Assembly: GCF_024298765.1 (NCBI RefSeq)
Contig: NZ_CP101212.1
Direction: 5' to 3' (one strand)
DNA from: Escherichia coli
GTDB taxonomy: Bacteria; Pseudomonadota; Gammaproteobacteria; Enterobacterales; Enterobacteriaceae
Length of the DNA stretch: 64,000 nucleotides
Shown here piece by piece: positions 1 through 4,352 of this stretch; positions within the stretch are counted from its first letter, which is position 1, and each line of letters starts with the position of its first letter. The notes under the pieces were generated by a model. The model was not told the origin of the DNA. It made no database searches and was given only the letters and a program-made list of their open reading frames with translations. The translations under genes were made by a program, and so were the position numbers.

Positions 1-570
1 AACTCAGCAAACATTCGTAAATGGATTGCTCGGTTTTATCACTTTTGGCATCTATACTCCGCTGGAAGCCCGGGTATATTGCTCACAATAGTTGCCCATC
101 GATATGGGGAGCTCATCTGCACTGTTCATTAATATACTTCTGGGCTCCCTACAGTTGTTTTTGCATAGTGATAAGCCTCTCTCTGAGGGAGGAAATAATC
201 CTGTTCAGCGATGTCTGCCAGTCGGGGGGGCTGCATTATCCACGCCCGAGGCGGTGGTGGCTTCACGCGGGGATGGGCAGATTGATCTGATATGCAACCG
301 ACGACGACCAGCGGCAACATCATCACGCAGAGCTTCATTTTCAGATTTGGGCCACCTTTTGATTTCTCGTTTAACTTTTGCAGTCACCAGACTGTGATTT
401 ATTTTAACAAATCAATAGCTTTCATAAAATTCTCGAAGCTGAAAGCTTAACTGAACCAACCAGCCTGGCTGGTGTTTTCTAAAGACAAAAAGGCCATCAG
501 CAAAACACTGATAGTCTGAATCACCTTTATCAATCATGTATGAAGAAAATATGCGCAATTAGTTGACAGT

Positions 571-586
571 GATTATCATTTTCATT
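571..586. promoter_or_regulatory. Fur-box-like operator next to a TTGACA -35 hexamer
   Basis: gattatcattttcatt resembles the Fur consensus GATAATGATAATCATTATC (reverse-complement half); TTGACA at 564-569 immediately upstream; hairpin plus U-tract at 626-692 downstream. Confidence 0.3.
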
Positions 587-950
587 AAAAAGAGCGCGTA
601 GCATTCTTATTTCATGAGGAAATTTACCCGCCAACAACCTGAGTAGCGAAAGCTGTTCATCCCCAATATTTTTGCTGGCGGGTTCTTTTTTCTACTGTCC
701 TCCTCCCCAGAGGAAGCATTCCCATTAATCATTACTGGCGAGGAGGCAAGAGAAAAAGTCGGTTCTTTGTCCCTAAATAACAGCATCATTTCAGTCCATG
801 CAAAATCTGATTTACCAGCTCACATAATAACCTGATGATACACAGTGTAAGTTCACAGAGATATTGCAATTGCCTCCGGATAAGTAAGGGGAGATTGCAC
901 TATGCAAATGCAGCACCTGAGGTTGGCTATCCTAAGCAGCCGATTATGCG

Positions 951-2001
951 TTGAGGCTTTCAGTGATGGCTGATATAGCAACAATGAGAATGAAGGCTCT
1001 GCACTTCTGGGATAAACACGGTATTTCTGCAGCTTCTGAAGCCTTTGGCGTATCCTGCCGCACGCTTTACTGGTGGCGTCAGTTACTGAACAAGGGAGGA
1101 CCTGAGGGGCTAATCCCGCACAGTAAGGCACCTCTGGTGCGACGAAAAAAGCACTGGCATCCCGATGTGCTGAAAGAGATTCGACGCCTCAGGACAGAGC
1201 TGCCGAACCTCGGTAAAGAGCAGATTTTTGTTCGCCTGAAGCCCTGGTGCGCATAACGCCATCAGACCTGCCCGAGTGTTTCCACCATCGGCAGAATGAT
1301 CGCCACCGCACACGATAAAATGCGGATGATACCAGTACGTCTGAGCTCGCGGGGTAAGGCTCTGCTTGTCAAAAAGCGAACCACCAAACCCCCGCAGGCC
1401 AAAGCACTACCGTCCGGTAAAGACAGGAGAGCTCATTGGGATGGACGCCATTGAGCTCAGAATGGGTGAAATGCGTCGCTATATCATTACCATGATCGAC
1501 GAACACAGCGATTACGTACTGGCGCTGGCTGTGCCGTCGCTCAACAGTGATATCGTCAATCACTTTTTCAGCCGTGCAGCCCGGCTGTTCCCTGTCGGTA
1601 TCAGCCAGATCATCACAGATAACGGGAAAGAGTTCCTGGGAAGCTTTGACAAAACGCTGCAGGAAGCCGCCATCAAACACCTCTGGACCTATCCCTACAC
1701 GCCAAAAATGAACGCTATCTGTGAACGTTTTAACCGGGCATTAAGAGAGCAATTCATTGAATTTAATGAAATTTTACTCTTTGAGGATCTGGCGTTGTTT
1801 AACCTGAAACTGGCGGAATATCTGGCGCTGTATAACAGCAAAAGACTCCACAAGGCGCTCGCACTAACGACGCCCGTGGAATATATTTTAAAAGAGAACA
1901 AAAATTGCAATATGTGGTGGACCCATACACAGCAAACGCACAGGCCGCCCCGGTTGGGTAGATATGTGGGATGGCTGGTTCAGACTTCAGGATATGGTTG
2001 A
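951..2001 (+). pseudogene. IS481/IS3-like DDE transposase remnant (HTH N-terminus plus rve integrase core), disrupted
   Basis: ORF 951-1256 encodes an HTH-type N-terminus; ORF 1366-2001 encodes an integrase core with a DDE-like TDNGKEF...ERFNRAL signature; TAA at 1254-1256 and a frame change near 1420-1440 separate them. Confidence 0.6.
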
Positions 2002-2795: not shown

Positions 2796-3236
2796 ATTTG
2801 TGTCTGTGTTGTTTCTGGTAAGGCTGAAAGGGAACAAACATCGCCTGTACAACGGCGTTTTTACTTACAGACCAGCGAAGGCGAGACTATCAGGATGATG
2901 CATCGTGTGTCTAAGAAATCACGGTTCTTTCCAGATTCGTTGTTCGGTCTAACACTGCACAAATGCGTCAGAACATCCCGGCGTAGCTGTCCGACGCCAT
3001 TTGGGCTGTTCAACAGGACAATGGCGCGTAAGCGTTAATGGAAGTGGGGATACGGAGTTCCCTGTTCACCTGTGTATGTCACGGAAAAGTCTCTGACTGA
3101 GCTGTCCATAACGCTGGTGAAGCACAAATGGCGCAGCATCTGGTAAAGCAGGTTTAACGAAAAGTCGTGTCCTGCTGCTGGCATATGAGTGCGTCGACTG
3201 CCTGATTTAGATCGTCAAGCGGAGAGGGATTTTCTC

Positions 3237-4352
3237 ATGCGTATTTTGTTTGTAGGCCCGCCTCTCTATGGGCTGTTGTATCCTGTGCTGTCTCTGGCGC
3301 AGGCATTTCGCGTTAACGGTCATGAAGTGCTGATCGCCAGTGGAGGACAATTCGCACAAAAAGCGGCAGAGGCCGGGTTGGTGGTGTTTGACGCCGCACC
3401 CGGTCTGGATTCCGAAGCTGGTTACCGCCACCATGAGGCACAGCGGAAAAAAAGTAATATCGGAACCCAAATGGGCAACTTCTCATTCTTCAGCGAAGAA
3501 ATGGCCGACCATCTGGTGGAGTTTGCCGGACACTGGCGGCCTGACCTCATCATCTACCCTCCGCTCGGAGTCATCGGGCCGCTGATTGCCGCCAAATATG
3601 ATATACCGGTCGTGATGCAAACCGTAGGCTTCGGCCATACCCCCTGGCATATCAAGGGTGTAACGCGTTCGCTCACGGACGCCTATCGTCGCCACAATGT
3701 GGGGGCCACACCACGTGATATGGCCTGGATCGACGTAACACCGCCGAGTATGAGCATTCTGGAAAACGACGGTGAACCCATTATTCCGATGCAGTACGTC
3801 CCGTATAACGGTGGCGCGGTGTGGGAACCATGGTGGGAGAGAAGGCCCGAGCGTAAACGTCTGCTGGTGAGTCTCGGCACTGTCAAACCGATGGTTGACG
3901 GCCTTGATCTAATCGCCTGGGTTATGGATTCTGCCAGTGAGGTCGATGCCGAGATCATCCTGCATATTTCAGCCAATGCGCGGTCCGATTTGCGCTCGCT
4001 GCCGTCAAATGTTCGCCTGGTTGACTGGATACCCATGGGTGTCTTCCTCAACGGCGCAGATGGTTTCATTCATCATGGCGGAGCAGGCAATACCCTGACA
4101 GCGCTACACGCTGGTATTCCACAAATCGTCTTCGGCCAGGGAGCCGATCGCCCGGTAAATGCCCGCGTTGTTGCCGAACGCGGCTGCGGGATTATCCCTG
4201 GCGACGTCGGCCTGTCGAGTAACATGATCAATGCTTTCCTCAACAATCGCTCACTTCGCAAAGCCTCTGAAGAGGTAGCAGCGGAAATGGCGGCGCAACC
4301 CTGCCCAGGTGAAGTGGCGAAAAGCCTGATCACAATGGTACAGAAAGGGTAA
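3237..4352 (+). CDS. iroB: Salmochelin C-glucosyltransferase IroB
   Basis: 371 aa from ATG at 3237 (track ORF begins at an upstream GTG); glycosyltransferase-like N-terminus MRILFVGPP; first gene of an iroBCDE-iroN syntenic block. Confidence 0.92.
   Translation: MRILFVGPPLYGLLYPVLSLAQAFRVNGHEVLIASGGQFAQKAAEAGLVVFDAAPGLDSEAGYRHHEAQRKKSNIGTQMGNFSFFSEEMADHLVEFAGHWRPDLIIYPPLGVIGPLIAAKYDIPVVMQTVGFGHTPWHIKGVTRSLTDAYRRHNVGATPRDMAWIDVTPPSMSILENDGEPIIPMQYVPYNGGAVWEPWWERRPERKRLLVSLGTVKPMVDGLDLIAWVMDSASEVDAEIILHISANARSDLRSLPSNVRLVDWIPMGVFLNGADGFIHHGGAGNTLTALHAGIPQIVFGQGADRPVNARVVAERGCGIIPGDVGLSSNMINAFLNNRSLRKASEEVAAEMAAQPCPGEVAKSLITMVQKG

Follow-up and report, generated by a model that had tools for sequence, protein, structure and literature searches.

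The first 950 nucleotides of a 64-kb stretch of Escherichia coli DNA (64,000 nt in full, hereafter the window) very probably represent a decayed piece of the late region of a lambdoid prophage, which moved together with the bor-derived iss gene to ColV/ColBM-type plasmids and was later cut by insertion sequences. The component segments, and the short ORFs that overlie them, are collected in Table 1. An earlier note, made from the letters and a list of ORFs, had described this interval as a set of overlapping short ORFs, none of which could be assigned. That description was accurate for the ORF list, in which there is no long ORF between 1 and 950 and only short, mutually overlapping ones on both strands. 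Genuine remnants among them are the ORF at 205-387(-), which is Rz, and that at 129-338(-), which is an Rz1/Rz fusion; the others are unsupported. The note was wrong to find nothing recognizable, as every segment of the interval has a clear database match. Its suggestion that a disrupted gene or IS had left a remnant here held for Rz/Rz1, for the IS200-like left end, and for the left end of the IS481-family element, but not for 481-842, which is a remnant of neither. It had also named a clear match to an intact gene as a finding that would speak against it, and such a match was found in part, since positions 1-91 are the 3' end of iss, a gene that is intact in the source plasmids.

Table 1. 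Segments and short ORFs identified in positions 1-950 of the window
Feature	Position	Strand	Basis
iss 3' end (increased serum survival lipoprotein, Bor family)	1-91	+	Last 29 codons and TAG stop at 89-91
Rz (lambdoid i-spanin) pseudogene remnant with embedded Rz1 (o-spanin)	113-348 (approximate)	-	DNA identity to lambda, BLASTP, PGAP
IS200/IS1541-like left end with tnpA 5'UTR	346-487 (approximate)	-	Rfam RF01405, alignment with three IS200-family copies
Lambdoid-prophage "pre-holin" intergenic module	481-842 (approximate)	unstranded	Homology to prophages, islands, and a Klebsiella plasmid
Conserved sRNA-like unit (candidate)	563-691	+	Promoter-like elements, fold, conservation; function putative
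IS481-family insertion sequence, left end	846-950 (element 846-1929)	+	Identity to intact copy, PGAP
Short ORFs, plus strand	21-290, 92-397, 292-450, 835-954	+	ORF list
Short ORFs, minus strand	129-338, 205-387, 412-558, 530-637, 607-789, 812-916, 853-1131	-	ORF list

Several hundred E. coli plasmids of the ColV/ColBM type were found to be 100% identical to the window over 1-950. The plasmid records matching the interval numbered 772, of which 543 had at least 80% query coverage, and these were mostly conjugative IncF-type plasmids from poultry and from human extraintestinal isolates. The only named feature beneath the match in these records was iss. RefSeq lists the features of the E. coli type-strain plasmid NZ_CP033091.2 in the order IS2, iss, an Rz1 pseudogene, an Rz pseudogene, an "integrase core domain" pseudogene, iroB, and iroC, with iroD, iroE, and iroN coming after iroC; the iroBCDEN genes lie approximately 3 kb downstream of iss. 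The interval is the iss-iro region conserved among virulence plasmids of the ColV/ColBM type, and we found no difference from the iss locus of those plasmids beyond the fact that the window cuts iss. It is ordinary DNA, already partly annotated and unchanged in hundreds of sequenced plasmids. The GC content drops from approximately 0.50 to approximately 0.38-0.43 across 300-900.

At the left edge, translation of frame 2-91 gave TQQTFVNGLLGFITFGIYTPLEARVYCSQ followed by the stop codon, and all 29 residues matched the C-terminus of the annotated Iss lipoprotein of NZ_CP033091.2 (WP_000738422.1, 97 aa). The start and the 5' two-thirds of iss lie beyond the left window edge, and the identical plasmid record has the complete ORF with MKKMLFSAALAMLITGC. 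The gene is intact and functional in the source plasmids, and is cut here only by the edge of the window. Johnson, Wannemuehler, and Nolan reportedly concluded in 2008 that iss was derived from lambda bor. Within 1-950, the iss tail is the only part expected to encode a working protein.

The homology to lambda continues past iss. Window 1-348 was 88% identical at the DNA level to lambda (J02459, 46191-46549), as well as to approximately 400 other lambdoid phage records annotated with bor, Rz, and Rz1. The convergent order of bor and Rz/Rz1 is the same as in lambda, but the Rz of the interval is truncated and frameshifted, its Rz1 is without the first codons and the C-terminus, and R and S are missing. 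What is retained of Rz is the C-terminal part of approximately 79 codons, the lambda homology ending at 348, near Rz codon 75; the N-terminal part of Rz, like the R and S genes, is absent from the interval. Alignment to lambda revealed a 9-nt deletion just past the iss stop codon and a 1-nt deletion that removes the stop codon of Rz, and the Rz/Rz1 frames are shifted by a 2-nt deletion in the G-run at approximately 225-232 and by several 1-nt indels. By BLASTP, the ORF at 205-387(-) had 67% amino acid identity to residues 64-117 of lambda Rz (E=9e-25). The ORF at 129-338(-) opens with MKLCVMMLPLVVVGC, which on comparison with the translation of lambda Rz1 proved to be the Rz1 signal peptide and lipobox minus the first codons. 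This Rz1 start is fused by frameshift into residues of the Rz frame, and a Pro-rich stretch is present. PGAP places an Rz1 pseudogene at 175-323 and an Rz pseudogene at 283-387. Like the two-component Rz/Rz1 spanins, the segment is homologous to Rz and carries Rz1 within it in the +1 frame, and in the same segment neither the N-terminal transmembrane domain of Rz nor a full-length Rz1 was found in an intact reading frame.

Adjoining the Rz remnant is a segment that returned a full-length Rfam match to RF01405 (STnc490) at 356-477(-), scoring 90.8 bits where the gathering score is 56 (E=7e-18). The DNA identity of this stub to IS1541B and IS200C was 75-76%. We checked the strand of the RF01405 model on three genuine IS200-family copies, namely IS1541B from pMT of Y. 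pestis, the IS200 of a lambda-like phage, and a third copy on an APEC plasmid. In all three, the model marked the tnpA-sense strand and its match stopped 10 nt short of the tnpA start codon. The IS200-like element in the window therefore reads leftwards, with a tnpA start codon expected at approximately 346. In the alignment, IS200 homology extended from the left-end hairpin to the Shine-Dalgarno region and then changed abruptly to Rz sequence, the Rz/IS200 junction lying at 345-348 with an AAA microhomology. The published map of IS200 places a hairpin at nt 12-34, the tnpA start at approximately nt 40, and a 5'UTR stem-loop at nt 69-138 (PMC4513863, Ellis et al. 2015); the stub retains nt ~1-144 of the 707 nt of IS200. 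The left-end terminator hairpin, the structured 5'UTR with its stem-loop, and the Shine-Dalgarno sequence are all shared with IS200/IS1541. Alignment and the ORF list revealed no ORF resembling tnpA, the Y1 (HUH) transposase gene, nor an IS200 right end, nor the art200 start site and promoter anywhere in the interval. The outer end of the stub, where IS200 and module join at 481-487, comes directly after a hairpin with a T-run that was identified by a terminator scan (514 to 494, minus strand), and all three of the comparison copies likewise sit directly after a terminator-like hairpin.

This late-strand terminator-like hairpin, against which the IS200 left end abuts, belongs to the next segment, 481-842, within which no matching record carries any annotation. 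The segment was 84.7% identical to positions 3001-3368 of an intact chromosomal prophage (L008), where it is located immediately upstream of the holin gene. The late-strand order in L008 is Q, further genes, DNA methylase, STnc100, the module, class II holin, YdfR, lysozyme, and Rz, with iss convergent. A pattern scan of phage contigs recovered 46 loci with the module, at 82-85% identity. In 37 of the 41 copies having enough flanking sequence, the holin gene was found approximately 110 bp from the equivalent of window position 560 and on the opposite strand. Judged by these homologies, 481-842 is an intergenic module that precedes the lysis cassette in one group of lambdoid prophages. Weak Rfam matches to snoZ223 (at 500-590) and to SgrS (in L008) were treated as noise.

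To the right of the module is an IS481-family element. The earlier note had placed an IS481-like transposase fragment alongside the interval; an IS481-family element does directly adjoin the module, but it is a whole, though dead, element rather than a fragment. Compared to an intact copy in strain K_EC180 (L005), which encodes a 357-aa transposase (WP_001178394.1), the identity was 92.5% over 845-1929. The left inverted repeat, TGTAAGTTCACAGAGATATTGCAATT, is at 846-871 and is followed by a leader and by the transposase ATG at 902; the right inverted repeat ends at 1929, and the right end, in reverse complement, reads TGTATGGGTCCACCACATATTGCAATT. The two repeats are imperfect and share TGTA...ATATTGCAATT. 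The element thus combines terminal inverted repeats and homology to the transposase with the loss of an intact DDE transposase ORF, which is interrupted by a 1-nt deletion at approximately 920, a 10-nt deletion at approximately 937, a stop codon at 1254-1256, and a further frameshift. PGAP annotates it as an "integrase core domain" pseudogene, frameshifted and with an internal stop. The last ~105 bases of the 950-nt interval already lie inside this element.

The right flank of the IS481-family element is the end of an ISEc13-like element of the IS4 family (1929-2047), after which the phage module resumes at 2047-2106, the STnc100 region in L008 matching at 73% and a Klebsiella plasmid at 90%. 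The IS481-family and ISEc13-like pieces interrupt what is one longer phage remnant. A simple insertion of the IS481-family element into phage DNA with duplication of a CAG target was also considered. That explanation is weakened by the identity of the right flank as an ISEc13-like fragment, and the flanking CAG/CAG may be due to chance.

The junctions, homologies, and boundaries described above are observed, and from them we infer an order of events that cannot be proven from sequence. First, an IS200-like element would have inserted between the module terminator and the holin gene, oriented like the late genes. A deletion from IS200 nt ~144 into Rz would then have fused the two at 345-348, and with it tnpA, the right end of IS200, the genes for holin and endolysin, and the N-terminal portion of Rz would have been lost. 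In prophage PP5 of EPEC E2348/69, the order is esterase, PasC, ISEc13, IS200C, and holin, and IS200C is oriented as the late genes are. PP5 is an analogous arrangement only, involving a different module family, but its retention of an IS200 just upstream of the holin gene makes the insertion step plausible. An IS200 at exactly the same site was found in none of the phage contigs in the scanned sample.

The fused Rz::IS200-stub::module composite (259-842) was also found, at 87% identity, in the pap pathogenicity islands of ExPEC chromosomes, with fragments of IS3-family and ISL3-family elements at its borders. The equivalent of 375-745 is present, at 85% identity, on a Klebsiella pneumoniae plasmid. 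The presence of the composite in pap islands, and of part of it on a Klebsiella plasmid, indicates that the fusion predates the spread to these replicons. The right boundary at 842 is common to plasmid, island, and prophage, and is not explained by a single insertion.

Most of the interval is best taken as hitch-hiking DNA without a function, with the possible exception of a unit running from promoter-like to terminator-like elements at 563-691. The high conservation of 561-700 among copies that are 82-87% identical overall counts against the whole interval being neutral junk. Among 20 distinct copies of the module, this unit was the best-conserved part: variable columns numbered 2-5 per 20 over most of 561-700 and 10-16 in the flanks. 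The module may therefore have been kept for a working sRNA gene at approximately 597-691(+), transcribed from a TTGACA promoter, repressed by Fur, terminated by a hairpin, and serving as a functional counterpart of the prophage sRNAs PasA and PasC. We consider this explanation rather unlikely, and the evidence on which that judgment is based is as follows.

The unit begins with a perfect -35 element, TTGACA, at 563-568, which was invariant among the copies. It is followed by a 17-nt spacer and a weak -10 element, TAAAAA, at 586-591, which lacks the final T; the site at 563-591 was not called in a promoter scan of the window. The predicted transcript would be approximately 95 nt in length (~597-691) and antisense to the phage late operon. 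Its putative terminator is a hairpin whose arms, 626-637 and 672-683, enclose an inner hairpin and are followed by a T-run at 684-691. The predicted fold of the unit had a dG of -25.9 kcal/mol (z=-2.7). A G-to-A substitution at 634 disrupts one stem pair in the plasmid copy and leaves it with the weakest hairpin, at -21.0 kcal/mol compared with -23 to -28 kcal/mol in the other copies, which detracts from the case for a working gene in these plasmids.

We scanned phage contigs in two ways, with patterns anchored in the hairpin arms or in the loop. Both scans recovered nearly the same 46-48 loci with invariant arms, a conservation that is in part imposed by the search pattern. The sole arm variant was an A-to-G change in one locus (L061) that gives a G-U pair. 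The near-invariance of the arms leaves no covariation that could support the hairpin. A search of Rfam likewise yielded no family matching the unit at E<1. Coding constraint was considered as a cause of the conservation, as PGAP annotates a 63-aa gene on the late strand of L008. This was rejected, since in most copies the ORF is interrupted, and the variable sites are distributed evenly, 16/15/14, over the codon positions; the overlapping annotated ORF is thus not conserved and leaves no codon-position signature.

Overlapping the putative core promoter is a match to the Fur-box consensus. Sites were scored as matches out of 19 to GATAATGATAATCATTATC, and the site at 565-583, between the -35 and -10 elements, scored 16/19, equal to the site at 2771-2795 upstream of iroB. 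In the 64-kb window, sites of at least 15/19 occurred at four loci, the other three being upstream of iroB, iroN, and the plasmid DAHP synthase gene, all of them iron-related, whereas shuffled windows had approximately 0.15 such sites per window. A Fur-like box of 14-17/19 was present in all 20 of the distinct module copies. AT-rich promoter spacers can, however, mimic Fur boxes by chance.

The location of the unit resembles that of PasA and PasC, which we examined as described by Pearl Mizrahi et al. 2021 (PMC8550237) and in the preprint of Zhu, Shabalina, and Storz 2026. These sRNAs of EPEC E2348/69 prophages directly adjoin the holin/lysozyme operon in antisense orientation (PMC8550237 table S6; bioRxiv 10.64898/2026.05.13.724894). 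The candidate unit shares with them the site between the upstream late-region genes and the holin/lysozyme operon, the antisense orientation, a similarly spaced TTGACA -35 element, and a hairpin terminator with a U-tract. The location and orientation were those of PasA/PasC in the same 37 of 41 evaluable phage copies mentioned above. The hairpin of the candidate unit is longer and built on two levels, and its promoter is Fur-box-like; PasA and PasC are without both features. Similarity to PasA/PasC in sequence or structure was not found; local alignments of PasA and PasC with the unit scored 16-18, not significantly above the means of 16.1-16.6 for dinucleotide-shuffled sequence. With no sequence similarity beyond chance, the unit would be at most an analogue of PasA/PasC.

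Two described sRNAs were considered as identities for the unit and rejected. PapR, an sRNA of UPEC, was a candidate because the module lies approximately 2 kb from papI in the islands, but both its primer-derived 5' end, CGGGCTGAAGTCCGGAAGTT, and its 3' end, TCTCCCAGCGCGGGCTTTTTTT, were absent, and the paper describing papR puts it outside the pap island. Esr41 lies close to iha in SpLE1, and no match was returned for its Rfam family.

Weighing these points together, we regard a real, discrete sRNA at 563-691 as a live but minority possibility, and control of the unit by Fur as somewhat less probable than that. The fuller proposal would be that the unit is an undescribed, Fur-repressed prophage sRNA gene occupying the PasA/PasC niche, carried along with iss to ColV/ColBM plasmids, pap islands, and the Klebsiella plasmid, amid iron-uptake loci. 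On the present comparisons this remains speculative, and we think it unlikely.

A second functional explanation places a working regulator in the IS200 stub, in one of three forms: the art200/STnc490 sRNA itself, the tnpA promoter and 5'UTR driving the lipoprotein ORF at 129-338, or an art200-like 3'UTR of iss ending at a hairpin at 378-397. STnc490 is an Hfq-binding RNA encoded opposite the tnpA 5'UTR of IS200, and has been renamed art200 (PMC4513863). The full-length Rfam match above the gathering score and the preservation of the left-end hairpin and 5'UTR stem-loop would be in keeping with the first form. However, transcription of art200 begins at IS200 nt 153/154 from a -10/-35 promoter further inside tnpA (PMC4513863), whereas the stub ends at nt ~144; the native start and promoter of art200 are therefore gone. 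The second form draws on the ORF at 129-338, where the ATG is still in frame and both a hydrophobic core and a lipobox (LVVVGC) remain. Against it, the tnpA promoter of IS200 is intrinsically weak and its Shine-Dalgarno sequence is sequestered (PMC4513863), the SD-like AAGGTGG in the interval is 13 nt from the ATG at 338, and in the PGAP annotation the ORF counts as a frameshifted pseudogene. The third form is suggested by a plus-strand hairpin with a T-run at 378-397, downstream of iss. The identity to genuine IS200/IS1541, at only ~76%, also argues against a regulator retained in any of these forms. We consider such a regulator very doubtful, and the segment is, as far as its sequence goes, a stub that is neither an IS nor an art200 gene.

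An intact but unrecognized protein-coding gene within 1-950 is so improbable as to be negligible: several ORFs of 60-101 aa do exist, but all of the interval is covered by homologous segments whose frames lie elsewhere or are broken, the plus-strand ORFs at 21-290 and 92-397 run antisense to iss and Rz or in a different frame from them, and the RefSeq annotation of hundreds of identical plasmids gives only iss and pseudogenes here.

On the reading of the interval as a decayed, IS-cut piece of a prophage late region, what had been set aside as unknown is the usual scar beside iss on ColV-type plasmids. The interval illustrates the route by which iss reached plasmids and pathogenicity islands, that is, within a lambdoid late region later eroded by IS200, IS481-family, and IS4-family elements. 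The Rz::IS200-stub::module composite is a handy marker of the shared ancestry of these virulence regions. Were the unit at 563-691 transcribed, the sRNAs that are increasingly being found beside phage lysis cassettes would gain an iron-responsive member, and were the proposal of Fur-repressed function true, ExPEC virulence plasmids would carry an overlooked iron-responsive riboregulator.

The element next to the pre-holin module (a lambdoid-prophage intergenic segment) belongs to the IS481 family and shares 92.5% identity with a chromosomal copy that is intact. Its transposase gene carries deletions of 1 nt and 10 nt 3' of the ATG at 902, and the frame is further disrupted by a stop at 1254-1256 and then by a frameshift farther on. 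The CAG found on either side of the element could be a target duplication, or could be there by chance. The element is in direct contact with the right end of an ISEc13-like element, which terminates in ...GATCAAGAGACAG. In prophage PP5 of EPEC E2348/69, the corresponding ISEc13 end adjoins the left end of an IS200C.

Beyond these insertion sequences the prophage module resumes, with 90% identity to the Klebsiella plasmid pTK421_2. The Rfam STnc100 model (RF02076) matched in the window at 17.6 bits only, and the insertions appear to have cut off an STnc100/PasD-like sRNA gene at this point.

Features of the window and of the related pap-island composite
Feature	Position	Remarks
IS481-family element, complete but inactivated	846-1929	inverted repeats present
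Right end of ISEc13-like IS4-family element	1929-2047	92% to copy in EPEC E2348/69 PP5
Resumed prophage module	2047-2106	73% to 5' part of STnc100 (RF02076) locus of L008, an intact chromosomal prophage
Fur-box consensus match	2771-2795	upstream of iroB
Fur-box consensus match	12841-12859	upstream of iroN
Fur-box consensus match	14697-14715	upstream of plasmid-borne 3-deoxy-7-phosphoheptulonate synthase gene
Rz::IS200-stub::pre-holin-module composite	4919-5511 of L003/L004	ExPEC chromosomes, pap islands; 87% identity to window copy

In PP5 (L012 2333-4900), ISEc13 is inserted in the left-end hairpin of IS200C, between the sRNA PasC and its holin gene; elements of the IS200 and IS4 families thus appear to land repeatedly in the region upstream of the holin. 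A host hairpin with a T-run directly precedes the IS200-family start in all four aligned copies (L006, L009, L010, and window 485-515), consistent with a preference of these elements for insertion beside intrinsic terminators.

The Fur-box matches are strong at all three sites (15-17/19), and the one upstream of the 3-deoxy-7-phosphoheptulonate synthase gene suggests that an aromatic-precursor enzyme beside the salmochelin cluster is under iron control.

The pap-island composite lies about 2 kb from papI, with IS3-family and ISL3-family pseudogenes at its borders. The composite is a shared-ancestry marker linking ColV plasmids and pap islands.
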